A DNA stretch of 57,993 nt, taken from NCBI GenBank assembly GCA_964452165.1, contig CAYVKP010000005.1, forward strand, positions 1 through 57,993, written 5' to 3'. This DNA comes from an uncultured Gammaproteobacteria bacterium (GTDB lineage: Bacteria > Patescibacteriota > Microgenomatia > Levybacterales > GWA1-39-11). How positions within the stretch are numbered: the stretch's first letter is position 1; each line of letters opens with the position of its first letter. Positions 1 to 46,767 of this stretch are shown one piece after another. The translations under genes were made by a program, and so were the position numbers. The notes under the pieces are model-generated. The model had not been told where the DNA came from, made no database searches, and saw only the letters and a program-made list of their open reading frames with translations.

Positions 1-18
1 CCCGCACGGTAAGCGGAT
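1..18 (+). repeat. Block-A intergenic motif, copy 1 (CCCGCACGGTAAGCGGAT), cut by the window edge
   Basis: The same 18-20 nt sequence recurs at 471, 839, 1437 and 2801. Each copy ends 18-24 nt before a start codon. It contains a CCGC-N6-8-GCGG mini-hairpin. Confidence 0.8.
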
Positions 19-41
19 AATCAAGTCCAAGGAGGACTCTG

Positions 42-482
42 GTGAAAAACATCGGCAAATTCATGACCGCCATCATCACGATCACACTGCTCGGCCTCAC
101 CATGGCCTGCGGCAGCAGCGACAAGACGGTCTTCGAATCGGGCAAGCACGAACCCGGCCAAGTCGGCGGGACTCACATATCACTTACCTACCTGGTGGAC
201 GGCGACTACCTGGTGGTCTACACCGATATGGATTTCTTAAGCCGGAGCGCCCTAGAGAAAGGCCTGACCATCAGGTATCTGGATGAGCTCCAAAAACGAG
301 GAATCCCGAACCGGAAGGAGTTCGACAAAGCGGTAGCAGAGCTTGCTGCTGGCGCGTTGACTGTCACGGAGACCACCCCTTTCCGCCACGTCAAGGTGGA
401 GATTCGGTCCGTGGACAAACCAGGTGGAGGTCAGCAGGCCGTTCGCCTGAACACCCAAGCATCTACCACACCCGCACGGTAA
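42..482 (+). CDS. Hypothetical secreted or lipoprotein-like protein (146 aa)
   Basis: GTG start 5 nt after AAGGAGGA (29-36). The N-terminal hydrophobic segment ends in LTMAC, which is lipobox-like. Codon usage is high-GC. The stop TAA (480-482) lies inside motif copy 2. Confidence 0.75.
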   Translation: MKNIGKFMTAIITITLLGLTMACGSSDKTVFESGKHEPGQVGGTHISLTYLVDGDYLVVYTDMDFLSRSALEKGLTIRYLDELQKRGIPNRKEFDKAVAELAAGALTVTETTPFRHVKVEIRSVDKPGGGQQAVRLNTQASTTPAR

Positions 483-488
483 GCGGAT
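471..488 (+). repeat. Block-A intergenic motif, copy 2
   Basis: CCCGCACGGTAAGCGGAT, identical to copy 1. It ends 23 nt before the ATG at 512. Confidence 0.85.
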
Positions 489-511
489 AGTTCAGTCACA
501 GGAGGAGACTG

Positions 512-838
512 ATGCTCTATAAGCTAACCCATCCTGAGCCCATTCTGGACGTAATCTCGCTCGGCTTTCAAGTCGTGCAAGGTCGTCCGTCAGGCGAACT
601 GGGCAAGCTCAAGATGGGCAACTGTTATGGCGCGCTGATCGTGACCTACCCCGCGCCTCACAAGCGCTCCTACGAGCTCTGGGTTGTGCCTGGACCGGAC
701 TCGCACAAGGATCTTCCTCACCTACTGGAGCTGCACGCCCGCGACCACCGCATCAACGGCATCTGGGACATAAGCAGCATCACGTTCGAAGAGGCCAAGA
801 AGAAGCAGGAGGCGCTCGACAGCACCTTCGCACCCTGA
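512..838 (+). CDS. Hypothetical protein (108 aa)
   Basis: ATG preceded by GGAGGAG (501-507). Sits in a same-strand array of tightly spaced high-GC ORFs. No domain recognised. Confidence 0.7.
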   Translation: MLYKLTHPEPILDVISLGFQVVQGRPSGELGKLKMGNCYGALIVTYPAPHKRSYELWVVPGPDSHKDLPHLLELHARDHRINGIWDISSITFEEAKKKQEALDSTFAP

Positions 839-856
839 CCCCGCACGGTAGCGGAT
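839..856 (+). repeat. Block-A intergenic motif, copy 3
   Basis: CCCCGCACGGTAGCGGAT starts directly after the stop at 836-838 and ends 18 nt before the ATG at 875. Confidence 0.85.
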
Positions 857-874
857 TAGTAAAGGAGGCCAGAA

Positions 875-1432
875 ATGGCTAACAACACGGGCAGGAGGAG
901 TTCGCCCATCACGGCTATCGTCGCGCTCCTTGCGCTCATCGTCCTCGGCCTGGCTGTGGGAATCACCTACTACTCGTCTCGCGACGCAAAGCCGAGTGCC
1001 AAGGTGGTCAAAGCCGTCAACTCCTCAGACATCAGCTTCGGGCCGACACCCAGCGCAGGGGAATGTCTGGATCGGTTCGAACGGAGTAAGGTTCAAGTCG
1101 GCGACACAATACGGGTTAAGACTCAGGGGAAGAACCCGGAGTACGTCGATCTCAGGACCGGTTCAACCGTCGTGGATGTCATACCGTTTTTCCTCTTGGG
1201 AATCGGTGATCGACCAAGCGGCGTAAACCTCGACAGAGAGAGCCTACCCGCAGGAGCTCAGGCGCGCGTGATACACGTCCAGTGTCGCGACGCGGAGGCA
1301 CACCTCATTCTGCTCTACCAGATCAAAGATCTGTGTGGGCTCAAAAACCCCACCAGGGTCCTTGAGTACTTCGGCGAAGAACCGATCCAGCAGGAGTTCA
1401 ATCGCTCTTATGGGGTAGACCCCTGCAGCTAA
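875..1432 (+). CDS. Membrane-anchored Cys-containing protein, paralog of 1475..2113 (185 aa)
   Basis: AAAGGAGG SD. N-terminal TM segment (ITAIVALLALIVLGLAVGITYY). Shares blocks with the next ORF, including GDTIRV, E.VD.RTG, V.C...H..L.Y..D.C and F..YGV..C near the C-terminus. Confidence 0.8.
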   Translation: MANNTGRRSSPITAIVALLALIVLGLAVGITYYSSRDAKPSAKVVKAVNSSDISFGPTPSAGECLDRFERSKVQVGDTIRVKTQGKNPEYVDLRTGSTVVDVIPFFLLGIGDRPSGVNLDRESLPAGAQARVIHVQCRDAEAHLILLYQIKDLCGLKNPTRVLEYFGEEPIQQEFNRSYGVDPCS

Positions 1433-1436
1433 ACGA

Positions 1437-1456
1437 CCCCGCATGGTAAAGCGGCT
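1437..1456 (+). repeat. Block-A intergenic motif, copy 4 (variant CCCCGCATGGTAAAGCGGCT)
   Basis: Lies 4 nt after the stop at 1432 and ends 18 nt before the ATG at 1475. Followed by TAGTAAAGGAGG, as in copy 3. Confidence 0.8.
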
Positions 1457-1474
1457 TAGTAAAGGAGGACTGAA

Positions 1475-2113
1475 ATGACTAAGGACAACATCATAAGGGG
1501 TGGCCGGATCGGGCTCCTGGTTGCAATCCTGCTAATCGTGGGTCTCGTGATCCGCGGAGGCAACCGGGAAACCAGGCCTAACACAACCCTGGAGACCACC
1601 CCCTCGGGTACTGTGACCGTCACGCTGACGGGCTCAGTCAACCCCGCAGCTCTCAAGGCCGCGGAGGACACCAGGAGGGTCGGCATCGCGGGCGACAAGG
1701 ATGACACCTCTTGCTGGAGCTCTGACCAGCTCAAGCAGGCTCCACAGCGCGGTGACACTATGCGCGTTACGTCCGTGATGACCTACGATACGCCTGGCGA
1801 GCTGGTCGACACAAGGACTGGCGTCGTCGCCAAGTTCAATGAGACCGGATCGCCTGGCTTCGTGCCTCTGTTGGGTTCGGGCAAGTTCCTGGCTATCCAA
1901 ATTCAGGGACCGTCCATTCCGGTCGGCCTCGAGCTCAAGGTAGCGGAAGTATCCTGTCAGGCTTACGTGAACGAGAGGCACCCTACGGTGACTCTGGTCT
2001 ACGATTTCGTCGACTACTGCCGCGATAAGCCGAGGATCACGAACGTGGTCAACCCATCCCAGACCGCCGGCGGGGCTTTCAGGGAGCGCTTCGGCGTCAA
2101 CCTCTGCGCCTAA
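1475..2113 (+). CDS. Membrane-anchored Cys-containing protein, paralog of 875..1432 (212 aa)
   Basis: AAAGGAGG SD. N-terminal TM segment (IGLLVAILLIVGLVI). Conserved Cys pattern shared with 875..1432. Confidence 0.8.
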   Translation: MTKDNIIRGGRIGLLVAILLIVGLVIRGGNRETRPNTTLETTPSGTVTVTLTGSVNPAALKAAEDTRRVGIAGDKDDTSCWSSDQLKQAPQRGDTMRVTSVMTYDTPGELVDTRTGVVAKFNETGSPGFVPLLGSGKFLAIQIQGPSIPVGLELKVAEVSCQAYVNERHPTVTLVYDFVDYCRDKPRITNVVNPSQTAGGAFRERFGVNLCA

Positions 2114-2234
2114 GCTGGCATGAAGCAAAGGTAAGCTGATACCTTTAAGCATGGAGCTTCAGCAGGTGCGTGCAGCATCTTAAGCCAACGCACTGCACGA
2201 AACGGCAGGCACGCATTCAGTCAGGAGGCCAGAA

Positions 2235-2786
2235 ATGGCAATCGCAACACAGGCTTTGGCAGGACAGAACCACACGATGAAGATCTCCCTCCCCTGGAGG
2301 AAGATTGCCATCGCCATCGTGGGACTGACCATGCTCGGTGCCGGCGCCTTCTTCCTGCACACGATCGGCAGCAAGAACGCTCAGATCACGCTTCTTGAGA
2401 AGAACCAGGCTCACACTGTGGAGGCACCCTACCGGCCGTTCTTCACGTTTATGACCAAGGGCGAGATCTACACGAATCCGATCTACGTCATGCCTGGTGA
2501 TACAACTGAGCCTGTCAGATTCGATTCGACGGACTTCGTGGTCCTTCGGGTTCGTCCGGACCCTACGGTGGAGAACGCTCTCGCCGGCGGATACATGGTC
2601 AACATCGGCCTAACCCAGCACTACCAATGGGATGGAGGACTCGCACCCACCACCGAGGCACAAATCGCCGAGGAGTACCAGCGCGTCTGCCTGACATACG
2701 GCATGTGCAACTGGATCGAGGCCGAAGCCGTTGGAAGAGAGGTCATCAAGACCCCGATCGGCCGGCGCGACGACCTACTGAAGTAG
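2235..2786 (+). CDS. Hypothetical membrane-anchored protein (183 aa)
   Basis: The SD and start context GGAGGCCAGAAATGGC is identical to that of 875. TM segment IAIAIVGLTMLGAGAFFL. Confidence 0.75.
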   Translation: MAIATQALAGQNHTMKISLPWRKIAIAIVGLTMLGAGAFFLHTIGSKNAQITLLEKNQAHTVEAPYRPFFTFMTKGEIYTNPIYVMPGDTTEPVRFDSTDFVVLRVRPDPTVENALAGGYMVNIGLTQHYQWDGGLAPTTEAQIAEEYQRVCLTYGMCNWIEAEAVGREVIKTPIGRRDDLLK

Positions 2787-2800
2787 CGCAAGCTACACGA

Positions 2801-2820
2801 CCCCGCACGGTAGAGCGGAT
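2801..2820 (+). repeat. Block-A intergenic motif, copy 5 (CCCCGCACGGTAGAGCGGAT)
   Basis: Ends 24 nt before the ATG at 2845. Preceded by a GTAGC-GCAA-GCTAC tetraloop hairpin at 2783-2796. Confidence 0.8.
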
Positions 2821-2844
2821 ATTCAGATCGGGAGGAAAACGATC

Positions 2845-3234
2845 ATGATGAAGCAAGCGGAAATCCTGGTTTACGTCGGCGAAAAGGACTTCGCCTCGCT
2901 CTCGGACCGCAAGCGCGACGAACTCCGGGCAGAGTTCGCTCAGATGGCCGCCTTCTTCTGGGACGCACAGTTCACGGATATCGAGGTGGAGCTTCAGCTT
3001 CACCCTATCCTCAGGACAGGAGAGCTGCCAGAACACGGCTTCCGCGCTGAGCTGCGCTATGACCCACTCTTCAACCGGGTCCTCGACGAAGGGGCAACCG
3101 ACCCCAAGTACGCCGGGAAACGGGAACAGCCGAGCCTGAAGACGCAGCTTGAGGAACGCCTCAACCAGCTCTTCCCTCGGGAGGACCGCCCGTACCACAG
3201 GGATAACCGCGTGGTGGTACGCGTCCTCGACTAG
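2845..3234 (+). CDS. Hypothetical acidic protein (129 aa)
   Basis: GGGAGG SD. High-GC ORF and the last gene before the composition drops. Confidence 0.7.
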   Translation: MMKQAEILVYVGEKDFASLSDRKRDELRAEFAQMAAFFWDAQFTDIEVELQLHPILRTGELPEHGFRAELRYDPLFNRVLDEGATDPKYAGKREQPSLKTQLEERLNQLFPREDRPYHRDNRVVVRVLD

Positions 3235-3678
3235 GCCAGCCACAAGCCGGCCAAGGCAAGCTATTGCCGCTCAATTAAGAGCAAATAGTAGGATTGCAGA
3301 ATCCTTCAAGCCCTGAGGCTAACGCCGAATGGGGGAAAATCCTCTGCAAACGCTGATGAGCGTAACTCATTAAGGTTCCATTGTAGGAAACCTTGGCTTC
3401 ATCTGAGGCTAAAAAGCTCTGCTTGTCGGAGAAAATACACGCGGTAGACGCTTCTATCAAACATGAACTGTCTTGGAAGACATAACCGGTCCCGGAGAGG
3501 AAAAAATACTAGCTATTTTGCTATGTACTATTTCTCTCCGGGCCGACACACTTCTCCTACTATGTGGGATCAGTGCAGGCACATTACGAGACTACAATTA
3601 ACGAAAACAACAAATTGACAATTTAATGTGTGAATTAGTTAATTTTGTTAATTGTTGCCAGGGCTAGCCTTGGCTGGC
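3235..3678. other. Non-coding, hairpin-rich element closed by imperfect inverted repeats (candidate structured RNA or non-autonomous element)
   Basis: The left arm 3235-3278 (GCCAGCC..AAGGCAAGC..CAATTAA) is complementary to the right arm 3647-3678 (TTAATTG..GCTAGCCTT GGCTGGC). Internal hairpins include 3290-3305, 3372-3395 (AAGGTTCC/GGAACCTT) and CCCGGAGAG/CTCTCCGGG at about 3501-3545. I see no credible ORF. Confidence 0.5.
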
Positions 3679-3952
3679 AGGAAGCTGCCTACGAGTGAAT
3701 TTATTGCAAAGGAGGACAGGACCTTTGTTTATTTTGAGCTCGTGGGTAGCTTTCTGCCTTTTTTCATGCCCAAAATGGGTCAAAAACGGCCCAAATTGAC
3801 GTTTTTACCCCTCCACTCTCTCTTACACAACTCTTACGCTTAGCCCTATAATAATGACGTATAAAGGTGCTAGGATACTCTATCTGGCTACAGGTCTTGC
3901 CAACTGTCAATTACTACTTGCCGATCATCAATTATTGAGCGGCCTATAGGAC

Positions 3953-3981
3953 TTGACAAATGCTTAACCATATGCTAGAAT
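3953..3981 (+). promoter_or_regulatory. Sigma70-like promoter (TTGACA-N17-TAGAAT)
   Basis: The consensus-like -35 and -10 boxes lie 19 nt upstream of the ATG at 4001. Confidence 0.5.
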
Positions 3982-4000
3982 TCCAAAATCTCATAAAAAT

Positions 4001-4690
4001 ATGAAGAAATTATTTGCTATTGCAGCAGCCACATTAATTGCACTAACAACCGCAAGTGCCGCCTACGCAGGTGGAACTTCAAATTGCCAAATAATCTACG
4101 GTGGAGGACAAGTTTGCCAAAAGAATCTTAAATTCACAATCAACAAATTAGTCCAAAAACCTGGAAAAGGTGGAGGAGATTTTGTTGAGAACCTTACTAT
4201 AAATGACCCACGTTTTGCTCCGGGTCAATCTGTTCAATTTAAAATCGTTGTTGAAAACACAGGCGATACTGACATCACAAATCTTAACGTAGTTGATACA
4301 TTCCCACAATTTGTAACCTTCATGTCCGGTGTTGGAAACGCATCTGCCGGAAACACACAAGATACATTTGTTGTTGGAAGCTTGCCAAAAGGAAAGAAAG
4401 CAGAATTTGTAATTACTGCTAAAATTGCTGACGCAGCAAATCTTCCTTCAGACCAAACTATAACTTGTGTCACTAACAATGTTGTTGCAACAGCACAAGA
4501 CGGATCACAGGGATCTGATAATGCACAACTTTGTATTGAAAAGCCAATAGTTAATGTCCAACCTACACCTCAAATTCTTGAGAAACCATTTGTTAAAAAC
4601 ATTCCTTCAACAGGACCTGAAACCGACGTCCTCTTTGGACTAGTCTCAACAGGCGCACTCGGATACTTTCTCAAGAGAAAAGTAAGCTAA
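4001..4690 (+). CDS. Surface protein with a DUF11-type repeat domain and an LPXTG-like (IPSTG) C-terminal sorting signal
   Basis: Signal peptide MKKLFAIAAATLIALTTASAAYA. The segment GQSVQFKIVVENTGDTDITNLNVVDTFP resembles the conserved repeat domain. The C-terminus has IPSTGPE, then a hydrophobic stretch, then KRKVS. Confidence 0.75.
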   Translation: MKKLFAIAAATLIALTTASAAYAGGTSNCQIIYGGGQVCQKNLKFTINKLVQKPGKGGGDFVENLTINDPRFAPGQSVQFKIVVENTGDTDITNLNVVDTFPQFVTFMSGVGNASAGNTQDTFVVGSLPKGKKAEFVITAKIADAANLPSDQTITCVTNNVVATAQDGSQGSDNAQLCIEKPIVNVQPTPQILEKPFVKNIPSTGPETDVLFGLVSTGALGYFLKRKVS

Positions 4691-5186
4691 ACCCCTTCTT
4701 TAAGGCAGGAGGGAGCAGTTTCAAGCAGTTTCAAATTTCCTCAAAATACTTCCAAATAATTTTTAGTCTTGAAACCACTCTCCCCGACCTTAATTCGGCC
4801 ATGCAAATTTTTTGTGTGTGTCCGTTTTGTTAGGGACGGCTTTATTTCTAATTTTAAACAAAAATTCGAACTCGATTTTAAAAGCATAAGTCGAGAGAGA
4901 TATTTTTGCGAGAAATTAGTTGTTCATTAACAAAGGTATACGAGAAAAATTACTTGTCCACGTAATCCGCTTAATTCGGCGAAAGTCGAACAAAAGGGTG
5001 AGGGACATTTAATATTCCAATAGGTAAACTCCGTCTAAAAAACGGAGATATTACGATGTTATAACGCAAGTTATGACATAGAATTTATCAAACCGATTTT
5101 AAGAATCGGTAATTTGCGTAATTATAGTAATTACGTTGTTTTTATTACAATCTTCTGAACCTAACCTACATATATATAGACTTTAG

Positions 5187-5286: not shown

Positions 5287-5490
5287 ATGTCTCACGACAT
5301 CAAGCTCGCGTTTGCGATCTGGCTCATCTTGGTAGCGTTAATTGCTCTGGGAATCTATCTCGTTACTGGGATAATCCCTCTGCTTACAACAACTATCTTG
5401 ATAGTCGGTTCCGCCATCGCTTGGTTTGTGGCCTCGATTCTATCGGCCGGCATCATTAACGCCGCCCGGAGGATCTTCTGGCATAAGTAG
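5287..5490 (+). CDS. Small multi-TM membrane protein (67 aa)
   Basis: Purine-rich AAGGAAGGAAG lies upstream. Two or three hydrophobic helices. High-GC codon usage. Confidence 0.65.
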   Translation: MSHDIKLAFAIWLILVALIALGIYLVTGIIPLLTTTILIVGSAIAWFVASILSAGIINAARRIFWHK

Positions 5491-5535
5491 CCTTCTCAGG
5501 AGTGAGAAACCTGGGATTGTAAAGAGGAGGTCTCA

Positions 5536-5790
5536 ATGGCAAACCGCACTGTCAAATCGACCAAGGCTCAGCGAGACGCAAAGGTGGCCGAACTCAAGGA
5601 AAGTGGCACTATCACCCTCATGGATGATGGCGACTACGACTTGATGAAAGCCGTCATAAGCGCCGCAAAGCCCGGTAACTGGATCTTCTTCCAGACAGCA
5701 CGTTGTGTCAAACCGACAAAGCGTGAGGTCAGCAAGAAGGGGATCAAGGTCGGCTTGGCCGGAGTTTGCACTCCATTCGTAGCGGCTTAG
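5536..5790 (+). CDS. Hypothetical protein (84 aa)
   Basis: AGAGGAGG SD 6 nt upstream of the ATG. Confidence 0.65.
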   Translation: MANRTVKSTKAQRDAKVAELKESGTITLMDDGDYDLMKAVISAAKPGNWIFFQTARCVKPTKREVSKKGIKVGLAGVCTPFVAA

Positions 5791-5880
5791 TCCAACACCC
5801 TGAAAGGAGGTGAGCTGAACTACAAAAAAGTGGTAGGATCAGGCAAGGATTGCCTTAGTTAGGTTTCGTAAGGAGGAACC

Positions 5881-5991
5881 ATGATCGCTATCAAGCCCCG
5901 TCACCTTTTGGCCTCGCAAGTCATGAAGCGCCCCGAAAAGCGCTGGCAGGACGAGCGGCCCAACAGGAAGCGCGGCACCAAGAAGCGCTGA
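5881..5991 (+). CDS. Tiny, highly basic protein (36 aa; below the ORF-track cutoff)
   Basis: TAAGGAGG SD. Hand translation: MIAIKPRHLLASQVMKRPEKRWQDERPNRKRGTKKR. Its stop overlaps the next start (ATGA-type overlap). Confidence 0.5.
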   Translation: MIAIKPRHLLASQVMKRPEKRWQDERPNRKRGTKKR

Positions 5992-6098
5992 TGCGGTTCA
6001 TTCGCAACAACGCCATCTATGCGTACGCGGTAGTCATGATCCTGATTTTTCTCGCGATCATCGTGGGAGGAGTCGGCAAGGCCTGCGGCGCATTCTGA
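5991..6098 (+). CDS. Tiny single-TM protein (35 aa)
   Basis: Start overlaps the previous stop. Hand translation: MRFIRNNAIYAYAVVMILIFLAIIVGGVGKACGAF. Confidence 0.45.
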   Translation: MRFIRNNAIYAYAVVMILIFLAIIVGGVGKACGAF

Positions 6099-6111
6099 AA
6101 CAGGAGGACAG

Positions 6112-6264
6112 ATGGCTAAAGAGCCAAAAATCCGTTCGCCTGACAGCGGCTGGGAGTTCGTCATCAAAAAAGGGCGAATGGCTCCCAAGAAGAAGCGGCC
6201 ACATCCGCAGAAACATCGGAAATGGAAGCAAATCCCGGCCCGCAAGGACAGGACCATAAAGTAG
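6112..6264 (+). CDS. Tiny, highly basic protein (50 aa)
   Basis: CAGGAGGACAG then ATG. Hand translation: MAKEPKIRSPDSGWEFVIKKGRMAPKKKRPHPQKHRKWKQIPARKDRTIK. Confidence 0.5.
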   Translation: MAKEPKIRSPDSGWEFVIKKGRMAPKKKRPHPQKHRKWKQIPARKDRTIK

Positions 6265-6405
6265 CTACCAAGGAGGCAGAATGAAATTGATGGTCTAGCG
6301 GAAGTAGTGCTAGTCTGATGAAAATCGGATAGGAATGAAGCACCCACTGCTTTCGCGATATAAAACTCAAGCTTCACGTTTACGGTTAGTCTTCGGAGGA
6401 AGACA

Positions 6406-8928
6406 TTGCCAGTTAACACTAAAGTGGAATGGCTCACGCGCATTCCCTCATGGACAGTTCCTCAACTGAGGGCTGGCTTAGCCACTCTGGGTCGACCCAC
6501 TACGGGCCTCAAAGCTGCTCTCGTGGCTAACCTGACGGCGTACGTCAGCGGCCGGCCGGCAACTTGGACTCACACATTCGACCCGACCGCCATCGGTGGT
6601 GGCACTCCGCCCCCGCCGCCCGCGAACCCGCCGCACATCACGAACGTCACGCCATCGCCCATCAACCCGATTCGGGAAGGTGACAGCGTTGGAATCGACG
6701 TTACCGTGACGAACGGCGTGGGCACTCGTGTCTTCTCGCTTCAGGCAGGTGCAAACCCTGTCCCGGCGTGGGCCACGATTCACGCGGCTTCCGGCCACGG
6801 CAACATCGCGCCGCCGGCTGGTAGTCACGGTCACTATGACCTGCGGCTCCGCGTCGAGGATGACAACCACGACACGGACGAAGCACCGCTGGTCTTCGAC
6901 GTCTACGCGCCCATGCGGTTCACCAACCCTATCCCGGCCAACATTGTAGGCCGCGTAGGTGGTGCACCGCTCGATCTCGACCTGTCCATCACTGATGGTC
7001 GAGGTGCTGTGACGATCACCATCACGGGTTTCCCTGCAGGCATTAGCCGAACGGGCGATCACTTGACGGGGTCGTACACTGCGGCTGGAACCGGCACTAT
7101 CCACGTCGTTGGAGACGATGGATCAGGCACCCCGTTGACGGCGGACATCCCGTACGTCATTCACCCGCGGCTCGAGCTGGCGGCTGGCTTCACTGCCATG
7201 CCCAACGCAACCGCGAGTCTCGCCTACGACGAGCCCGTTCAGGTACAAGGTGTAGTTGGCACTGCCTCCTACTCCCTGCCTGTCGGACACCCATGGGCGA
7301 GCATCCACGCCGTCACCGGCCATGTCACGGGTACTTCCGGCACTCCCGGTTCAAACCCCTTGACGTTCCGCGTGACGGACAGTGCTGACGGCACATCTGA
7401 GGACTTCAATGTTCCACTTATGACCGTTGCGGCACCCGACTTCACGCCGGCCGCCTTCCCGCCTGTTCCCGCTGGCACTCTGCCTCCGGGTCCGCCGCCT
7501 GGGCAAATCGTGCTCACGCCGACGGTTGCGGGATCGACCATAGCGTACAACGGTGCGGCATCAACAGGGTTGACGACACCTGGCTCACCCGCCTTCATCG
7601 GTGGCATGCTGGGAACGTCCCTGCACTTCAGCCGCGCGCCGTACAACAACCACGAGGTTCAGGTTCACCACCTGGCTTTCGACGTTACGCCTCCTGGCGG
7701 TACGCCGACTCGCATCTGGCGAGACCTCGAGGTTACTCACGCCAATGTGTCTTGGTGGAGACGCATCTGGAACAGTATCCCGGTATGGATGCGCCGGTTT
7801 ATCATCGGAGGCGGTATCCTGGTACTTCTGGTGCTACTCGCCTGGGTGATCACATCACGCGGTCACGACGACAACGTGGGTAAGCCCATTCCTGCAGCAT
7901 CAGCAACGCCACAGGGCGACTCGCTCCGCACGGAAGTTCTCAACGCGCTGAAGAAGGCTGACGCGGACTCTACGTCCACGCAGATCAAAAACACCGTTGC
8001 GAAGTACGTGCCGGACGAGGACAAGGCCAAGGTAATCTCCACGGCCATCAACGACGGCCTGGACACCACCGACAAGGCCAAGATCAAGCGTGACGACGTC
8101 AAAGACGCGCTGATCGAAGCCGTAAAGGCCGACGACGACAAGGCTACCGCCAGCGACCTCGCTGACGACATGGCCAAGGCTGTCCGTAAGCTGATCGCCA
8201 GCGCGGCTGCCAAGGTCACTCCGACACCCGACGTGTCGAAGCAGCCTCCGGCAACGCAGACGCCTGGCAACCAGCCTGGCAACAACAACCCGCCGGCAAC
8301 GCCTGTCACGGGCCCGTCGAATCCACCGTCGACGCCTACGACTGGCAACAACAACCAGTCGTCTACCAACGACTGCATCACTCCTGGACCGGCCGCGACC
8401 GTCAGCCAGATCACGAGTGTGCTAGGTATCGCTATGGGGCCTTTCGTCGACAAGCCGGCTGGTCCTAGCGGTAATGCTCCTGCTCTCTCTTGCGGCACGA
8501 TGGCTCCGTCGGGATCCCTCAGGCTGCCGCCGAACCTACCGGTCAGCTGTAGCTGGTCCAGCAGTGTTCCGCTCTACTCGGGTCGGACGCTCAAGCGTGG
8601 TAGCGCTGCCATCCTGCGGCTTCTTGACCGCGGTGCTGGTACTGTTCAGGTGATGTCCATCGGGTCGCTCAACAACGACACGTACATTGGGGCGTCTCCC
8701 GGCCAGAAGGGCGTCAACCTTGATGCATGGAGCACTCCGTGCCTCAAGTCCTGGAACCACCAGTGGCAGGACGCTTGTCAGGAAGCGCTCGATGTTGCTA
8801 ACAATGGGATCGACTCGATCGACCCTCGCTCGTTGAAGATAACTCTGGACGGATACACCGTCACGGACAAAACCAACTGCGGCGAGCTCGCTCAGCAGAT
8901 CCTGAAAGATCAGCAACAGAAGCGCTAG
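6406..8928 (+). CDS. 840-aa modular protein: SAP/HeH-like N-terminus, three Ig-like repeats, one TM segment, charged and Pro/Thr linkers, Cys-containing C-terminal domain
   Basis: TTG start 5 nt after GGAGGA. WTVPQLRAGLATLGRPTTGLKAALVANL matches the SAP pattern. The TM segment is FIIGGGILVLLVLLAWVITS. The C-terminal region of about 185 aa is homologous to the C-terminus of 16416..18269. Confidence 0.85.
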   Translation: MPVNTKVEWLTRIPSWTVPQLRAGLATLGRPTTGLKAALVANLTAYVSGRPATWTHTFDPTAIGGGTPPPPPANPPHITNVTPSPINPIREGDSVGIDVTVTNGVGTRVFSLQAGANPVPAWATIHAASGHGNIAPPAGSHGHYDLRLRVEDDNHDTDEAPLVFDVYAPMRFTNPIPANIVGRVGGAPLDLDLSITDGRGAVTITITGFPAGISRTGDHLTGSYTAAGTGTIHVVGDDGSGTPLTADIPYVIHPRLELAAGFTAMPNATASLAYDEPVQVQGVVGTASYSLPVGHPWASIHAVTGHVTGTSGTPGSNPLTFRVTDSADGTSEDFNVPLMTVAAPDFTPAAFPPVPAGTLPPGPPPGQIVLTPTVAGSTIAYNGAASTGLTTPGSPAFIGGMLGTSLHFSRAPYNNHEVQVHHLAFDVTPPGGTPTRIWRDLEVTHANVSWWRRIWNSIPVWMRRFIIGGGILVLLVLLAWVITSRGHDDNVGKPIPAASATPQGDSLRTEVLNALKKADADSTSTQIKNTVAKYVPDEDKAKVISTAINDGLDTTDKAKIKRDDVKDALIEAVKADDDKATASDLADDMAKAVRKLIASAAAKVTPTPDVSKQPPATQTPGNQPGNNNPPATPVTGPSNPPSTPTTGNNNQSSTNDCITPGPAATVSQITSVLGIAMGPFVDKPAGPSGNAPALSCGTMAPSGSLRLPPNLPVSCSWSSSVPLYSGRTLKRGSAAILRLLDRGAGTVQVMSIGSLNNDTYIGASPGQKGVNLDAWSTPCLKSWNHQWQDACQEALDVANNGIDSIDPRSLKITLDGYTVTDKTNCGELAQQILKDQQQKR

Positions 8929-9015
8929 TCTCCTCAAGAGGCAAAACAGTGTCTGCGTAAAGCACTGTGATTATGGCAACATAGTCGAATACTTTACGGG
9001 CAGGAGGCTTAATAT

Positions 9016-9384
9016 TTGAGCGTAAGCTTGAATATGAGTTTAGTCGAACTCCCTCCTCAACTCCTTCGGAATTATCGGCCAGTCCTAGGAGGATTGAAAG
9101 CGGTGAACCCCGCCATGGTACGACTGAATCAACAGTTCAGGCTTAAAATTGCAAAGTTCTGGGAGAAATTCCGGCGCGACGCGAAAGAGCTTGGGCTTTG
9201 GGTCAAGGAAGAGCTAACCTACCGGTTGCACATCACGCTGTATTATCTTCGTGAATGGAAAAGCGACTGGGATGAGGACCTGGAAGGATACGAATGGTTC
9301 GTAAGATCCATCATGATCATCCTGGGAATTGTCCTAGTGCTAGTCCTTGGCAACTTGATCACAACAGGCCAGCTACCTTTCTGA
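9016..9384 (+). CDS. Hypothetical C-terminally TM-anchored protein (122 aa)
   Basis: TTG start 8 nt after AGGAGG (9002-9007). C-terminal TM segment IMIILGIVLVLVLGNLI. Intermediate GC. Confidence 0.6.
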   Translation: MSVSLNMSLVELPPQLLRNYRPVLGGLKAVNPAMVRLNQQFRLKIAKFWEKFRRDAKELGLWVKEELTYRLHITLYYLREWKSDWDEDLEGYEWFVRSIMIILGIVLVLVLGNLITTGQLPF

Positions 9385-9617
9385 GCCACCTATTGGAAAT
9401 ATTTCTGAGTTTGCTTACATCAAGCATCTTCTCGCGCGCCGCAAGGCAAACGAAATAAGATCGCTGGATGCGGGCAGATCCCAGGGAGGAAAAAGGATGC
9501 ATTGGAGCACGGTTTCGTCTAACGACGATTTATCTTGCTTCTTTGCAAGAACCTATTCCTTCATCTCGTATACCTTTTTCCTAAGCTCATCATCAGAGAT
9601 GGTGATTTTAGGAAATT

Positions 9618-15384: not shown

Positions 15385-15528
15385 GCCACTTTCGTAGCAC
15401 AGTGTGTCTCATAGGAGAACTGCTTTGGCGGGACACTTTGTGTCTCTTCTTTTTCCCTAGGCGTTAAGCCATCATCGGTGTAAGTGCAGATTCTCCCTTA
15501 GAGTTTAAGCCGTCGCCGACTCAGTAGG

Positions 15529-16308
15529 TCAGCAGCGAACCGTTCCTGGCGAATAGCTAACGCCTCCGTGTTGGAACGCCCAGTCCCACGACTGCCAAGC
15601 CTGGTGTGGGTATCGCCGGTTGTTGACCGCGACACATACGTTGGCAAGCATGAAGCGCTCGGAGCTGTAATACCAGCCTACGTACTGCTTGCCACTGTTG
15701 TCGTTGGGGTGGTCAACTACGCAAAGCGAGTCAAACCAGTGGCCTTCGACGTACATCCAAGACACGTACCAAGTGCCGTAGGCGTCTTGAGCCCACTGAT
15801 CCGTTTCGAGGACACCCCAGACACCGTAGACGCAGTTCACGTAAGGTGACTTGTCGGGTACGGGAGCCCACCAGTCCGCAGTTGGAGCAGGAGCGCCGCC
15901 ACACTGAGTGATCAGATGGAAGCCGCTGGCCGGTACGTTGCGGTAGTGCGAGTCCCCCCGGTTCGCAGCAGCTTGCCGATCAGCAAGTTGTTTCGCCGCG
16001 GCATCACACGCAGCCTGAAGGTTGGGGTAATACCTCCACGCTATCCGCTGAGTTGGGCAACCGTGGTCGCAAGGTGTCCATGGGCCGGTTACGCCGCCGA
16101 AAACCGTGACGTCGATCGCTTGCCCCTGGCTGTTGAGGAGATCCTCCTCGGCAACAGCTATGATGCCGTTGATCGTAACACCGTCCGGAACGGCGTCGCC
16201 GTCGGCCGAGGCCGGAGTGACGCTGTAACCCAGGGTTGCGAACCCGGTGACGAGTACGAGAAGCAGCGCGAAGAGCCACTTCCCCCCGATAGGAATTTTG
16301 AGCACCAT
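15529..16308 (-). CDS. Secreted Cys/Trp-rich protein (259 aa)
   Basis: AAGGAGG SD 8 nt upstream. Signal or TM segment WLFALLLVLVTGFATLGYSVTPASA. Shares the C..GCP..AWRY.N module with 16416..18269. Confidence 0.8.
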   Translation of the reverse strand: MVLKIPIGGKWLFALLLVLVTGFATLGYSVTPASADGDAVPDGVTINGIIAVAEEDLLNSQGQAIDVTVFGGVTGPWTPCDHGCPTQRIAWRYYPNLQAACDAAAKQLADRQAAANRGDSHYRNVPASGFHLITQCGGAPAPTADWWAPVPDKSPYVNCVYGVWGVLETDQWAQDAYGTWYVSWMYVEGHWFDSLCVVDHPNDNSGKQYVGWYYSSERFMLANVCVAVNNRRYPHQAWQSWDWAFQHGGVSYSPGTVRC

Positions 16309-16415
16309 GTGCTCTACCTCCTTCTTCTTTGTTCAGCGCTCAACGCAAGCGCTTTGAACCCAAGTTGTAAACGTAACGCGGCCCCTTCAGAGGGAACGCG
16401 GAGGGTGCTGCGTTC

Positions 16416-18269
16416 TTATTGTCCGGTGCAGTAACCGGTCTGGGGAAGCTCGTGTTCGTTGAGCGTAACCTTGAGGCCCTTGCCTGTAATGGCCATGGCC
16501 TGGCTACAGCTGTTAGCGAACTGGCTGCCCCACGACGTACCGCATGGAGACGTCCACGCGTCCATAGTCACCAGGTCATCCGCCGGATTAGGCGAAACGC
16601 CAACCCAGAGGGCCTGGTTGAGATGCTCGAGAACGAAGAACTGGACGGTCCCGTCCGACACGTTGGTCAGACGAAGGATCGCCGCGACTCCGGCATCGAG
16701 CGTAGTGCCACGCGTGACACGTGCCATACCCTGGTTGCAGTCGGTTGACTGGGATTCCAAGGTCCCGGCCGGCGCGACTTGACCGTAAACGATCCTGGGC
16801 GCATTGCCCGTAGGACCGGCAGGCTTTGACACGAAGGCGCCGAGTGGCGACTTCATGACCGCTTCTCTGTTTGCCGTTTGATCGACAGCCGGAGGCTGCG
16901 TGCTTACGGCAGGAGGAAGCGGACTTGCGGCCAGAGCCTGTGACGACTCGAAAGAAGCCGCGTACGTCTGCGAGACGTTCTGCGCATTAACTTGCTGTGC
17001 ACCGGGTTGAGTCGGTGTCTGAACGGGAACGCCGCCGCCACACATGCCGGGCTGTGCCGGTGTATAGGTGACAGCACTAAACGTGGCTGGATCCTCGGCC
17101 TTGCGGCGAGGTCCCAGTTCGCAGGCTTCGCGCCGTGCGGTTTCCGCTGAGTCGTGACCGATCCAGCAGTTGTTGTTGGGTCCGGCCGTGAAGGCAACGC
17201 CACTAACACCACCGTAGACGACGGCAGTGTGCTTGTCCCAGTTGATGGCCTCAAAGACACCAATGGTGTTACTTTGGACGGTCTCGCCGTTGGTGCAGGC
17301 TCGGGTCACCGATTGTGAAGGCGGAGCCGTGTTAGGCGGTACCGGAGCCTGAGGCCGAGTAGCCGGGGGCGGTGCCTGCTGTGGTTGCGAAACCACAGGT
17401 TGTTGAACCGGAGCAGGTGCAGACCTGGGCGGAGCCGGGGGGCTCTGGACAGGCTGTTGAACCGGTTGCTGAACCACCACGGGTTGCTGAACCTGAGGCT
17501 GGGCAGGGACCTGCTGTGGTGGCGGAGCCGGAGCCTGAGGCCGAGGCGGAGCCGCGGATTGCGGATTCTGCCTCATTTGTTCGGCAAGCCTGCTGCCTTG
17601 CGTGTAATGCTCGACGGTGTCATTGAGCTTTGTGGCTCTCATGTACACTGCCGGGTTGACGGAGGTCACCTGCGGGGTGCCGATCACCTGGTACCTGGCG
17701 TCGCAGATGCCGCCGGGGACGGTTTCAGCTGTACTCTGATCGTTGAGGAACATGTTCTCGTTGTAGTTGCCCGGGGTGCCTTGTACTCTCCAGCGCTGTA
17801 GTGTCACGCAACCGCCGGAGAACATCTCGCCCGGGTTGTCGTAGCGCCAGGCCAAAACCCCGAAAGGCGGACATCCTCCGAAATCGGGATGACACACCTT
17901 GACCTCCTCGGCGTTGAGGCCGACGAAGATTTTGGTGGTGCTGTACCTTCCTGGTGCCCAGTTGGTTACGGCTATCACGGCAAGGTCGCCAGGGTTGACG
18001 TCATGGCCTTCCGTGATTTCTTCGAACTTGCCATCCGGTATTCCAGAGTCCTTGAGAGCATCGTTAACGGACGTCCTCAGCTGCGTGAACTGTTCGCGCA
18101 GAAGAGCGTCGTTGGTGCTCGATGCGGCTGATGGTTCGGCGGTTTGGCCGAGTGGCGACTGCTGCTGTTGGGTAGCTTTCGCTTCCTTTGATGATACGCT
18201 CAGCGCTCCGACGACAATGATCGCCAAAAGCATGAGACCACCGAAGGACGCGAGCAGTTTCAATGGCAT
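16416..18269 (-). CDS. Secreted 617-aa protein with a Pro/Gln-rich low-complexity core and a C-terminal domain shared with the 840-aa protein
   Basis: AAGGAGGAGG SD. Signal or TM segment LLASFGGLMLLAIIVVGALSV. C-terminal blocks KPAGPTGNAP, AAILRL, GTVQ, MDAWTSPC and LKVTL match 6406..8928. Confidence 0.85.
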   Translation of the reverse strand: MPLKLLASFGGLMLLAIIVVGALSVSSKEAKATQQQQSPLGQTAEPSAASSTNDALLREQFTQLRTSVNDALKDSGIPDGKFEEITEGHDVNPGDLAVIAVTNWAPGRYSTTKIFVGLNAEEVKVCHPDFGGCPPFGVLAWRYDNPGEMFSGGCVTLQRWRVQGTPGNYNENMFLNDQSTAETVPGGICDARYQVIGTPQVTSVNPAVYMRATKLNDTVEHYTQGSRLAEQMRQNPQSAAPPRPQAPAPPPQQVPAQPQVQQPVVVQQPVQQPVQSPPAPPRSAPAPVQQPVVSQPQQAPPPATRPQAPVPPNTAPPSQSVTRACTNGETVQSNTIGVFEAINWDKHTAVVYGGVSGVAFTAGPNNNCWIGHDSAETARREACELGPRRKAEDPATFSAVTYTPAQPGMCGGGVPVQTPTQPGAQQVNAQNVSQTYAASFESSQALAASPLPPAVSTQPPAVDQTANREAVMKSPLGAFVSKPAGPTGNAPRIVYGQVAPAGTLESQSTDCNQGMARVTRGTTLDAGVAAILRLTNVSDGTVQFFVLEHLNQALWVGVSPNPADDLVTMDAWTSPCGTSWGSQFANSCSQAMAITGKGLKVTLNEHELPQTGYCTGQ

Positions 18270-18629
18270 TTCGTGCCTCCTCCTTGGGTTAGTCTAAAAA
18301 CACTACCTTCATTTACGCATGCAAGCGGTATCGACATACCTATCTACGCTCTCTGGCGAAGACAACTATTCTTGCATTTTATCGTGCGCTGCTGAAGGTG
18401 ACTCCATCTGTTTTAACGTCTTTTCGAGTATTTCTACTTATAGACCACTTTGGTCAGACGTTGTTCCAGGACGGATAACACCCGCTGTACATGAACTTGC
18501 CTTGCGGCTCGTCCACAATTTCTATGAGTCCTCTGCCCTTGGGCTCATAAATACGCACAGCAGGTAGTACCCGTCCTGGATATTGGGATAAAAATGATTC
18601 CTGTAAGAAATCCCGATCAAATCGGGATC

Positions 18630-26235: not shown

Positions 26236-26847
26236 ATGGAAATTTTGCTTCCAATTGTAATCCTGGTATTCTCGGCTATCTTGCATGAGATTATGCACGG
26301 GGTTGTTGCAGAAAAACTAGGCGACTCCACTGCAAGAATTATGGGCCGTCTAACGCTCAATCCTATCCCTCATCTTGATCCTATCGGAAGTATTCTATTG
26401 CCGCTTTTGGCAATTTTTGGAAATACCGGGATCTTTTTTGCCTGGGCAAAACCGGTTCCAATCAATCCACTTCACTTTAAGGATCCCAAAAAAGATATGG
26501 CATTGACCGCACTGGCAGGACCGCTAACCAATCTTTTGATTGCCATTGTTGCGGCGCAACTTTTGCGGTTTGCAAAAGCCGACGACATAATTCAAGCAAT
26601 TTTATTTGTAACGGTAAGACTGAATTTAGCGCTTGCTGTAATTAACTTAATTCCTATTCCCCCGCTTGACGGAAGCAAGGTTTTGGCGTCAATTCTACCA
26701 AATGACTTGGCCCGTTCTTACTTATCAATTGAAAGATTCGGTATATTTATTTTACTCGCTCTACTGCTCTTTCCAATTGGTGGATTTTCTCTTTCAGAAC
26801 TGATTAATAATCTTACGATTTTCTCCTTAAAATTTTTAGGGGTTTAA
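26236..26847 (+). CDS. Site-2 protease family (M50) membrane metalloprotease
   Basis: HEIMHG zinc motif in the first TM segment. The second motif is NLIPIPPLDGSKV. Confidence 0.85.
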   Translation: MEILLPIVILVFSAILHEIMHGVVAEKLGDSTARIMGRLTLNPIPHLDPIGSILLPLLAIFGNTGIFFAWAKPVPINPLHFKDPKKDMALTALAGPLTNLLIAIVAAQLLRFAKADDIIQAILFVTVRLNLALAVINLIPIPPLDGSKVLASILPNDLARSYLSIERFGIFILLALLLFPIGGFSLSELINNLTIFSLKFLGV

Positions 26848-27453
26848 CTACTTATTGTAGTTACTCATGTAGCGATCTATTCCGTGTTCTAAAATTAATT
26901 CGATACTTCGAATTGCCTCGCGAATCATAGTTTTGACTTTACCGCGATCGGCCGAAGAGATATTTCCAAGTACGTACTCGTCAACATTCTGGTAATTCTT
27001 GCTCTTAATCTCTTTACCCTCCACTCTTCTAGGATTACCTATACCTAGTCTTACACGCAGGAACTTATCGTTGTTTAAAGTATTTATTATTGACTCAACG
27101 CCGTGATGACCTCCGCCGCTTCCCCCAAAGCGCACCCTAATTTTGCCGAATGGTAAATCAAGATCATCGTGTACAACCACCAAATCAACGGGATCAATTT
27201 TATAGAAGTTTAGGATTTTGGTGACTGCAAATCCCGAATTGTTCATAAAAGTTGTGGGTTTTGCAAGCATAACGTCTCCGAATTTTGACTTTATTTTCTT
27301 AAGATCTGCTTTAAGGTCTTTATTCTCTTCCCAGAAGGTCTTCTCAAGTGGCTCAAGTTTTTCAATAAGCACATCAAGCGCCATAAATCCAACGTTGTGG
27401 CGTGTTTTAGTATATTTATCACCGGGATTTCCGAGTCCTACAATCAATTTCAT
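26848..27453 (-). CDS. pth: Peptidyl-tRNA hydrolase
   Basis: MKLIVGLGNPGDKYTKTRHNVGF plus the HDDLD and GG.GGHHG blocks. Confidence 0.95.
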   Translation of the reverse strand: MKLIVGLGNPGDKYTKTRHNVGFMALDVLIEKLEPLEKTFWEENKDLKADLKKIKSKFGDVMLAKPTTFMNNSGFAVTKILNFYKIDPVDLVVVHDDLDLPFGKIRVRFGGSGGGHHGVESIINTLNNDKFLRVRLGIGNPRRVEGKEIKSKNYQNVDEYVLGNISSADRGKVKTMIREAIRSIELILEHGIDRYMSNYNK

Positions 27454-27458
27454 TTTAA
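27422..27458. repeat. 37-bp perfect direct repeat, copy 1 (covers pth codons 1-11 and the TAAA junction)
   Basis: CCGGGATTTCCGAGTCCTACAATCAATTTCATTTTAA is identical to 27540-27576. Confidence 0.95.
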
Positions 27459-27478
27459 TACCTCTTTTTCTTCAAAGT

Positions 27479-27541
27479 ACCACCGCTGTCTTCGCTTCGC
27501 TCGCAGCCGGTCTCCCTTCGCTTTTGCGATCGGTCCGACCC
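27479..27541 (-). repeat. GC-rich element of about 60 nt, copy 2 (inverted relative to 19770-19828)
   Basis: The reverse complement reads GGGTCGGACCGA..GGGAGACCGGCTGCGA..ACAGCGGTGGT. It lies between the two 37-bp repeats. Confidence 0.65.
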
Positions 27542-27576
27542 GGGATTTCCGAGTCCTACAATCAATTTCATTTTAA
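27540..27576. repeat. 37-bp perfect direct repeat, copy 2 (a duplicated pth 5' end abutting the gpmA stop)
   Basis: Identical to 27422-27458. Confidence 0.95.
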
Positions 27577-28202
27577 ACTTTCCCTTTCTGCGAGTTTTCA
27601 GACCTAATTTGCTTTGAAACAATTTTACCATTACTGTCTATTTCGTAGACATACGCTTCTCCGGTCCCAATCTCAAGCTCTGAAATCTTATCATCTGGAA
27701 TATTATCTAGATATTTTACGAGTGCCCTAAGAGAATTGCTGTGAGCGGCTATCAAAATATTTTTTCCTTCCCTAATCTTGGGTTCGATTTCAGATTTATA
27801 GTAAGGGACAGCACGGTCATACACCATTTTGAGGCTCTCTCCATTTGGGAGCGGGTAATCCCAGCTTCTTCTAATTTTTTGAAACTGCTCTTCCCCCACT
27901 TCTTTCTCAACCTGCCACTTATTTTTTTCGGTATAGTCACCATAATTCTTTTCATTTAATGCAGCATCGCGAACAATGGGTGGTGCCTGATTTATCACTT
28001 TAAGGATTTCATCAAGTGTTTGTTGGGCACGAATCAACGCTGAGGTATAGGCATAATCAAATTTAATATCCGCGAGTTCCTCTCCTGTTTTTCTTGCCTC
28101 CTCAAATCCTGAAACTGCCAGTGGGATGTCTGTCCAGCCCGTCCAAAGACCCTTTTCATTCCATTCGGATTTTCCGTGACGAACAAGCACAAGGTATGCC
28201 AT
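27573..28202 (-). CDS. gpmA: 2,3-bisphosphoglycerate-dependent phosphoglycerate mutase
   Basis: The LVRHGKSEWN catalytic His motif plus the histidine-phosphatase layout. Confidence 0.9.
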   Translation of the reverse strand: MAYLVLVRHGKSEWNEKGLWTGWTDIPLAVSGFEEARKTGEELADIKFDYAYTSALIRAQQTLDEILKVINQAPPIVRDAALNEKNYGDYTEKNKWQVEKEVGEEQFQKIRRSWDYPLPNGESLKMVYDRAVPYYKSEIEPKIREGKNILIAAHSNSLRALVKYLDNIPDDKISELEIGTGEAYVYEIDSNGKIVSKQIRSENSQKGKV

Positions 28203-46519: not shown

Positions 46520-46767
46520 AGGTTAAAAAAGGCATTGTAACTCAAAAAAATGGTGCAAAGATTACGATTTTTGACGGTGAACATTCGGCGTTTTACAAGT
46601 TTAACGAAACCGCATCTTTGATTTTTGAAAAATTAAAGAAAGGATTAAGCAGGCAAGAAATCTTGGACATGATGGTTAACAAATACGATATTGCAAGAAA
46701 AACTGCTGAGAAAGACTTTGACCAACTCGTGAAAGAGATGAAATTACGTGGGATTATCTCAGATTAA
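46516..46767 (+). CDS. PqqD-family protein (candidate stand-alone RiPP recognition element)
   Basis: 83 aa. The FYKFNETASLIFEKLKKGLSRQEILDMMVNKYDI...DFDQLVKEMKLRGII pattern is typical of PqqD. Confidence 0.65.
   Translation: MKVKKGIVTQKNGAKITIFDGEHSAFYKFNETASLIFEKLKKGLSRQEILDMMVNKYDIARKTAEKDFDQLVKEMKLRGIISD

Follow-up and report, generated by a model that had tools for sequence, protein, structure and literature searches.

A conserved repeat at the gene junctions of an orphan gene array on a GC-rich island of an uncultured soil bacterium

The stretch of DNA analysed in the present work (hereafter the window) is a complete 57,993-nucleotide (nt) contig, CAYVKP010000005.1, of a soil-metagenome bacterium; the 5S rRNA and a 3' portion of the 23S rRNA lie at the right end of the window. 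Most of the window has a guanine plus cytosine (GC) content of 34-44%, the genome as a whole being 38% GC and poor in Shine-Dalgarno (SD) sequences, and three islands of 58-62% GC are embedded in it, viz. A (positions 1-3240), B (about 5400-9400) and C (about 15400-18300). Island A, or block A, holds the right-hand portion of a co-oriented array of 11 or more orphan genes, whose spacers contain the short repeat, M1, with which this work is concerned. In the best alignment the consensus of M1 is CCCGCAYGGT, followed by 0-2 nt, AGCGG and MT, and a semi-conserved (TAA)ACGAY usually stands 5' of it. A second module, M2, which consists of an AU-rich linker, an AGGAGG-type SD and a start-proximal arm, precedes the next start. 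The features of block A within the window are as follows.

42-482, 512-838, 875-1432, 1475-2113, 2235-2786 and 2845-3234, + strand: six co-oriented orphan genes of the array
1..18, + strand: M1 copy 1, CCCGCACGGTAAGCGGAT, cut by the contig start
19..41, + strand: M2, AU-rich linker, AAGGAGG and start-proximal arm, before GTG 42
471..488, + strand: M1 copy 2, CCCGCACGGTAAGCGGAT, whose loop holds the TAA stop (480-482) of gene 42..482
489..511, + strand: M2 before ATG 512, SD in the predicted loop of CAGUC/GACUG
839..856, + strand: M1 copy 3, CCCCGCACGGTAGCGGAT, with the shortest loop, directly after the TGA at 836-838
857..874, + strand: M2 before ATG 875, TAGTAAAGGAGGCCAGAA, in which a convincing SD hairpin was not found
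1437..1456, + strand: M1 copy 4, CCCCGCATGGTAAAGCGGCT, 4 nt past the TAA at 1430-1432
1457..1474, + strand: M2 before ATG 1475, TAGTAAAGGAGGACTGAA
2114..2210, + strand: long spacer without M1, with the hairpin AAAGGTA-agctga-TACCTTT at 2127-2146
2211..2234, + strand: M2 without M1, before ATG 2235, ATTCAGTCAGGAGGCCAGAA
2801..2820, + strand: M1 copy 5, CCCCGCACGGTAGAGCGGAT, 14 nt past the TAG at 2784-2786
2821..2844, + strand: M2 before ATG 2845, SD in the predicted loop of a different stem, GAUCG/CGAUC

Our analyses have identified five copies of M1 in the window, every one of which lies on the + strand and in block A, and the 18-20 nt core (18-25 nt in the comparisons with other elements below) ends 23, 23, 18, 18 and 24 nt before the next start in copies 1-5, respectively. 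A preliminary description of this DNA had placed the motif at the same five positions, 0-15 nt after the upstream stop and 18 or 23-24 nt before the next start, with the stop of gene 42..482 inside the second copy, and all of this is borne out, copies 1, 3, 4 and 5 standing 4, 0, 4 and 14 nt after their stops. The motif string given there recurs at all five places, while its alignment has been refined to CCCGCAYGGT(0-2 nt)AGCGGMT. The pattern CCGCAYGGTA-N0-3-GCGG has matches at 2, 472, 841, 1439 and 2803, all on the + strand, against an expectation of 0.00 from 100 dinucleotide shuffles of the window. A covariance model, which was built from the seven M1 copies known in this organism (see below) and run unfiltered over both strands of the whole window, returned only the five known copies (E <= 1.4e-5), the next best match having E = 0.34. 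M1 is therefore absent from blocks B and C, as had been described, and from the low-GC DNA, and within this 58-kb contig its copies are confined to block A.

The array could be followed beyond the window on a Logan contig of 5345 nt from the same organism (L001, where the position equals the window position + 3093; identity checked), which lengthens block A by 3.1 kb leftward and brings the array to at least 11 co-oriented genes with ten junctions. Seven of the ten junctions carry M1, viz. the five in the window, a canonical copy at L001 2445 and a variant, CCCGCACGGTGAGCGGAA, at L001 1819, and in six of these seven copies M1 ends 18-24 nt upstream of the start. Copy 1 is preceded in L001 by TAAACGAC, in which the TAA is the stop of a 201-aa (amino acid) gene, 4 nt before the copy. 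Of the remaining junctions, the one at L001 990-1023 starts with CCCGC and then decays (decayed copy CCCGCTCGAGAG), and that at L001 418-464 contains a different hairpin, CCGAC-cagcga-GTCGG, at a distance from the SD module equal to that of M1. The third, at window 2114-2234, is a 121-nt spacer with an unrelated 7-bp hairpin, in which neither direct reading nor the covariance model finds a copy, in agreement with the preliminary description. This spacer may contain an inserted small host repeat, which would have displaced M1. A diverged relative of window 2112-2153 was also observed in a different, AT-rich context in one sequencing run (X3), with the loose ends AAAAGAAAGGAGATAGAAATGCG... and AAGGATATGGGAGACAAGGTG.... 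To the left, three Logan contigs all end at one identical base, and the head of the array is situated on an 81,627-nt sister contig.

The exceptional junctions show how the spacer is built. The variant at L001 1819 directly abuts the upstream stop, with about 105 nt between it and the next start, and this start keeps its own conserved SD module, CAAGTCCAAGGAGGACTCTG-GTG, which is identical to the segment before gene 42..482. Because the variant stays at the stop at such a distance from the start, M1 belongs with the upstream stop and M2 with the start. Conversely, window 2211-2234 and L001 1000-1023 keep the sequence yTCAGTC-AGGAGG-sCTGAA-ATG without a canonical M1. A junction therefore consists of M1 on the stop side and M2 on the start side, and the two are separable. 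The motif is tied to the upstream stop and not to the start, while the more general idea put forward in the preliminary description holds, namely that a cis-element analogous to the start-associated or intergenic repeats of phages recurs between the genes of a co-oriented array. All seven copies of M1 contain a TAA, TAG or TGA, and a role of these triplets as in-frame backup stops was considered and rejected; counted by hand from the window and L001 sequence, they lie in frames 0, 0, 0, 1, 2, 2 and 2 relative to the upstream open reading frames (ORFs).

The conservation of M1 is sharply bounded. When the seven copies were aligned with 40 nt on either side, the mean pairwise identity per column was 0.9-1.0 over CCCGCAYGGT and AGCGG, 0.4-0.7 over the 5' ACGAY and the first bases past GCGG, and 0.1-0.4 elsewhere, and 12 of the 18 core positions are invariant among the seven copies. 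The paralogous genes that flank M1 share 18-35% amino-acid identity. A neutral relic would have decayed together with these diverged flanks; hence M1 is under purifying selection or is actively homogenised, and on these sequence comparisons the repeat is real, non-random and constrained. Window 22-62, a tract of 41 nt that covers M2 and the first seven codons, agrees with L001 1922-1962 at every position, also at synonymous sites, although the two genes otherwise share 35% amino-acid identity, which suggests either recent gene conversion or an RNA-level constraint on the start region.

Transcription of the array was considered from the same sequences. No sigma70-like promoter was found on the + strand in window 1-3240 or in L001 (6.3 kb scanned), and no intrinsic-terminator-like site was found on the + strand at any array junction; therefore the array looks like one transcription unit. 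A single transcript without internal promoters and terminators fits a need for internal punctuation. M1 itself was rejected as a sigma70, sigma54, extracytoplasmic function (ECF) or T7-like promoter, since a scan gave no match and, by inspection, it has an internal indel, lacks the hexamers and is wrongly spaced relative to the GATAAT-like linker. It is likewise distinct from an intrinsic terminator, as it lacks a stem of at least 5 bp with a U tract and is followed by AU-mixed linkers, not by a T run.

Every copy of M1 is predicted to be able to form a CCGC/GCGG stem with a loop of 6-8 nt, at -5.3 to -6.7 kcal/mol. The length of M1 varies (by 0, 1 or 2 nt) at one place only, after GGT and before AGCGG, within the 3' half of the predicted loop, and this favours an RNA hairpin, since a loop tolerates such an indel whereas a double-stranded DNA (dsDNA) site read by one protein does not. 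The CCGAC/GTCGG hairpin at L001 418-464 resembles an M1 stem that has been lengthened symmetrically by one A:T pair, and the change looks like a single compensatory-type event. The mini-hairpin noted in the preliminary description is accordingly upheld in that every copy can form it, although it has just 4 bp and receives no support from covariation.

Since the loop tolerates indels, M1 has one orientation and stays with the stop, and internal promoters appear to be missing, the reading that we favour, tentatively and with well under even confidence, is that M1 is an RNA-level intercistronic stem-loop recognised by a factor and serving the processing, stability or insulation of each cistron. 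Block A would then form the right-hand end of one long polycistronic unit, in which at least 11 small genes are read in one direction. Within this mRNA, M1 would adopt a 4-bp stem clamped by GC pairs and a loop of 6-8 nt with the fixed 5' part A-Y-G-G-U. Recognition of M1, by sequence and shape, would fall to an RNA-binding protein or endoribonuclease, which would either cut the AU-rich linker immediately 3' of the stem or simply bind. The upstream cistron would be left with a protected 3' stem-loop and the next translation initiation region would be freed, so that the stability and translation of neighbouring cistrons could be uncoupled. An AU-rich single-stranded linker between two GC-rich hairpins is a classical setting for cleavage of the RNase E/G/Y type.

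A number of observations weigh against this reading. The M1 stem has only 4 bp, it appears in the minimum-energy structure of four of the seven whole-junction folds, and the z-scores of the folds against shuffles are mixed. As the four pairs are invariant, covariation is uninformative, and the loop bases are conserved as strongly as the stem bases, which equally fits a sequence-specific recognition of DNA; whichever molecule is read, the recognition of M1 must for this reason be sequence-specific. One strain carries G479T in the loop of copy 2, a change that is synonymous for the overlapping codon. A canonical M1 is missing from three of the ten junctions, the array yielded no candidate reader protein, and among the public runs no RNA-seq run contains this locus. 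With so weak a stem and a loop conserved at the sequence level, rival readings retain some probability, and RNA processing, translational control and protein binding by M1 are treated here as hypotheses.

A first alternative, in favour of which the strong conservation of the loop speaks, is an oriented DNA site, either a stoperator-like repressor site that blocks elongation and silences the island or a non-template-strand signal for a NusG/RfaH-type factor, and we regard this reading as unlikely. The stoperators of Cluster A phages often overlap a stop codon. They are fixed, asymmetric 13-mers (GGTGGMTGTCAAG-like), situated in short intergenic spaces and oriented with transcription, which are read as dsDNA by a monomeric repressor of the L5 gp71 type and which number more than 20 per phage genome, some of them at promoters (PMC9283540). 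M1 is comparable in that all seven copies are on the coding strand and lie in or overlap intergenic spacers, stop-codon overlap included, but M1 has an internal 0-2-nt indel, and the stoperator 13-mer has no match at M1 (<=2 mismatches). On dsDNA such an indel would rotate the half-sites relative to each other by up to about 70 degrees. The ops element, the site of RfaH, has the sequence GGCGGTAGnnTG, with a C3:G8 pair and a pause at T11G12 (PMC5995543); like M1 it is a small hairpin-forming element, on the non-template strand, of long, horizontally acquired operons, and M1 copies 3 and 5 contain CGGTAG, its central hexamer (PMC5995543). However, no copy of M1 matches GGCGGTAGnnTG with <=1 mismatch, A replaces G8 of the C3:G8 pair in five of the seven copies, the pause-inducing TG is absent, and ops is a single element in an operon leader and does not recur after each gene. 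No repressor or NusG paralog was seen in the available DNA, and the domain library searches reported no DNA-binding domain in any island protein.

A second alternative, which appears less probable still, is that M1 acts on translation, being melted by the terminating ribosome and then refolding, in which case it would insulate the next initiation region or provide, with the AU-rich linker, a standby or re-initiation platform for M2. In five of the seven copies the 5' arm starts within the 8 nt that follow the first base of the stop codon or, in copy 2, ahead of that base, a position that falls inside the footprint of the terminating ribosome, and in six of the seven copies M1 ends at the distance of 18-24 nt from the start noted above. 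In whole-junction folds the SD is placed in a small hairpin loop or left mostly unpaired at five of the ten junctions, by M2 stems that differ in sequence (GUCC/GGAC, CAGUC/GACUG and GAUCG/CGAUC), and an M2 hairpin on this basis is suggestive only. Nevertheless, the variant at L001 1819 is too far from its next start for coupling, three junctions translate from M2 alone, and the predicted accessibility of the SD ranges from 0.03 to 0.99 across the junctions without a consistent pattern.

Comparably doubtful is the proposal that M1 marks the DNA junctions of a cassette system, as a site or hot spot of duplication, shuffling or conversion with no role in expression. In array order the paralog families read X W Y Z Y V Z Z X U, which is interleaved and not a simple tandem, and the 41-nt tract shared by two otherwise diverged genes would indicate recent conversion. 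Further, a 487-nt contig of a relative in the source soil (run X1), which overlaps window 850-879 and has a depth of 6.3 as against 21 for the main strain, reads ...GAGCAGCTCCCCTTTGA-TCCCGCACGGTAA-GCGGATTAGTAAAGGAGGCCAGAAATGGC-AATCGCAACACAG. In this relative, M1 and an M2 of the copy-3 type precede a gene that starts like gene 2235, an order unlike that of the window, and the cassette order therefore differs between relatives. Block A also shares with integron arrays the absence of promoters, the co-orientation of small and mostly orphan genes, an atypical composition, a gene order that differs between relatives and a hairpin-forming element that can overlap the stop. On the other hand, no recombinase is visible, and no integron integrase was found in the 58-kb window, the array head lying outside it, on the sister contig. 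An attC site is at least about 55 nt long, with R''/L''/L'/R' boxes and a GTTRRRY core. M1, by contrast, is 18-25 nt long with 4-bp arms (whole spacers, in this length comparison, being 29-58 nt including the SD), far below attC or the typical 28-34-bp cores of tyrosine recombinases; its copies are direct repeats only, and neither the boxes nor GTTRRRY could be read in M1 or M2. Integron cassettes are unrelated captures, whereas those of block A are paralogs. In four metagenome runs no joint left by deletion or excision was detected, the sole joint listed being a repeat artefact, and conversion tracts are not normally bounded so sharply at the same 18-25 nt in seven contexts.

A functionless relic, i.e., an ancestral cassette 3' end including its TAA that was carried along by duplication and remains similar by chance or recency, is improbable: the 5' extension (AGC)TAAACGAC does hold an ancestral stop, still used in two copies and bypassed in others, and the decayed copy at L001 990-1023 would fit, but neutral decay should have matched the flanks, whose identity is near-random while most of the core is invariant. 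Least probable of all, and offered as speculation, is that M1 and M2 together form the boundary signal of an undescribed mobile or shufflable cassette array, in which every small secreted-protein gene would terminate in a hairpin-forming site of 18-25 nt and a dedicated enzyme would excise, duplicate or reorder these genes via single-stranded DNA or RNA, on GC-rich, SD-dependent orphan islands of a low-GC genome, with an integron-like logic, a minimal site and unrelated machinery.

Short GC-rich palindromes after stop codons within operons are also known as the repetitive extragenic palindromic (REP) sequences and bacterial interspersed mosaic elements (BIMEs), which can shield the mRNA upstream of them against 3' exonucleases and give rise to differential expression inside an operon. 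REPs measure 20-40 nt, have longer stems, occur in hundreds of copies and in both orientations, are often paired, and are linked to REP-associated tyrosine transposases (RAYTs). M1 resembles them in being a short GC-rich palindrome after stop codons inside an operon, but it has a 4-bp stem, a single orientation and a single island, with no other copy in the 58 kb or in any collection scanned. The nearest analogue is the start-associated sequence (SAS) and extended start-associated sequence (ESAS) of Cluster K mycobacteriophages, in which an SD-containing 13-mer at gene starts is preceded, in half of the cases, by inverted repeats with a variable spacer (PMC3203893; PMC12699233). The SAS is a 13-bp sequence, GGGATAGGAGCCC (<=2 mismatches), located 3-8 bp upstream of starts, and the ESAS, directly upstream of it, consists of imperfect 17-bp inverted repeats with a 4-13-bp spacer; their function is still unknown fifteen years after their description (PMC3203893; PMC12699233). 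Both systems have one orientation and occur in arrays of small genes of unknown function. They differ in that GGGATAGGAGCCC has 0 matches in the window (<=2 mismatches), M2 being a different SD-containing sequence; in that the arms and spacer of M1 are 4 bp and 6-8 nt, as against 17 bp and 4-13 bp in ESAS; and in that ESAS goes with SAS and the start, but M1 with the upstream stop, M1 being parted from the start module at L001 1819. In addition, SAS and ESAS are found in Cluster K phage genomes, while the M1 locus is a chromosomal island without phage similarity. M1 and M2 thus differ from SAS/ESAS in every defining feature, and likewise differ from stoperators, ops, REP, attC and intrinsic terminators; they therefore represent a new sequence family within the repeated intercistronic cis-elements.

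The motif was scanned against IMG/VR (50 loci returned), JGI/ENA metagenomes (45 loci) and 185,579 species genomes (25 loci), an SD being required in addition to the motif pattern in the latter two collections and not in IMG/VR, and no related array was found in any of them. The matches are single and taxonomically scattered, consistent with chance, except for one locus (L049) with a second weak match; among the species genomes, none has several matches of motif plus SD, and two related metagenome-assembled genomes have one each. Among the collections scanned, the M1 cluster was found on this organism's own contigs alone. In Rfam, only the 5S and 23S rRNAs reach the gathering threshold in the window, and nothing over M1 has E <= 1 in positions 1-4000. 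Neither blastn nor tblastn against 50,697 phage records detected any similarity, there were no PHROG matches, and no similarity of the island to plasmids or IMG/VR records was found. The covariance, Rfam, metagenome and phage scans proposed in the preliminary description thus reveal no known family and no multi-copy locus elsewhere, and the link to phages that it drew finds no support, the SAS consensus being absent as well. The locus itself is present in four soil DNA runs and in one further run of low share.

The array genes are as isolated as the motif. Most of their proteins have an N-terminal membrane anchor or a lipoprotein-like signal, as small secreted-protein genes would, and the structure models of the two non-membrane proteins (predicted local distance difference test scores of 58 and 61) are unusable. 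No family in Pfam, PHROGs or NCBIfam was found for the island-A proteins, and among the proteins of all the islands the only family found in these libraries was the SAP domain of the 840-aa island B protein. A word-indexed protein search returned the window's own proteins and their L001 paralogs and nothing else, while a HMMER profile search of 1.84 billion representatives identified three distant relatives of the Z family (P0003, P0006 and P0007); the two of their genomic contexts that are readable are short and contain no M1. P0007 is a lipoprotein-like protein of 185 aa on a low-GC contig. On that contig, a Logan contig from another sample (L123), three consecutive hairpins (CCGCCA-cc-TGGCGG, CCCCGCC-ttt-GGCGGGG and CCCCGC-aacg-GCGGGG) precede the P0007 gene at 140-262. 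They are longer than the M1 hairpin and unrelated to it; the last of them resembles the M1 5' arm but is not alignable by the model.

The composition of block A sets it apart from its surroundings. GC content at third codon positions is 0.69-0.78 in block A genes and 0.51-0.70 in islands B and C, as against a mean of 0.36 in the low-GC host genes, and an SD core within 20 nt of the start is present in 10/10 block A genes but in only 4/33 low-GC host genes, even for a 4-nt core. The genes of islands B and C likewise carry a canonical AGGAGG SD, and against billions of sequences every island protein is an orphan. A chimeric assembly as the cause of the GC islands is ruled out by independent contigs from three runs, which cross the junction of island A with the low-GC DNA (2223-4157, 1753-4729 and 2789-4157) at even depth. 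Block A is thus a foreign-looking, SD-rich island of 58% GC inside a low-GC genome.

Several other features of the window were recorded. Past the last island-A gene, about 760 nt (3235-4000) contain no ORF of at least 64 aa and over this stretch GC drops by degrees, from 52% to 40%; TTGACA-17-TAGAAT with a TG, a strong sigma70-like promoter, lies at 3953-3981, only about 20 nt before a gene at 4001 with DUF11 and a sortase signal, which for this reason would have a very short leader. In island B, the 840-aa orphan (6406-8928, + strand) has an N-terminal SAP domain, apparent repeats, a Cys-rich C-terminal part and, as judged by eye only, a hydrophobic membrane-spanning stretch near residue 460, and tiny SD-bearing ORFs lie upstream of its gene (e.g., 5882-5991 and 6113-6265). 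The window encodes a YcaO/SagD-type cyclodehydratase (49004-50263), and 26236-26847 weakly matches an intramembrane HExxH protease; the host may have a potential for the biosynthesis of ribosomally synthesised and post-translationally modified peptides (RiPPs). An archaeal-type signal peptidase I is encoded at 46764-47975. Two neighbouring genes on the minus strand, 26848-27453 and 27573-28202, have duplicated start regions, since a 50-nt direct repeat of 88% identity (27422-27471 and 27540-27589) takes in their 5' ends and the DNA upstream. Lastly, a 736-aa ORF at 35839-38049 on the minus strand joins sulfatase and 3'-phosphoadenosine 5'-phosphosulfate (PAPS)-reductase domains, an unusual fusion.

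Cis-elements that punctuate long gene arrays (viz. SAS/ESAS, stoperators, REP and attC) are a recurring and poorly understood phenomenon. Nothing in the M1 data yet shows a new mechanism; on the tentatively favoured reading M1 is an RNA-level punctuation mark between genes, and with M2 it provides a compact and modular example of such elements, in which the stop-side and start-side modules are seen apart in natural variants and the surrounding genes have diverged enough to make selection on M1 obvious. Its setting is a chromosomal island and not a phage, and the context is unusual, with three SD-bearing orphan islands of high GC content in a genome whose genes mostly lack SDs. If M1 is a signal for RNA processing or insulation, it would constitute a ready-made intercistronic part of about 20 nt, whereas as a recombination site it would establish a new cassette system.

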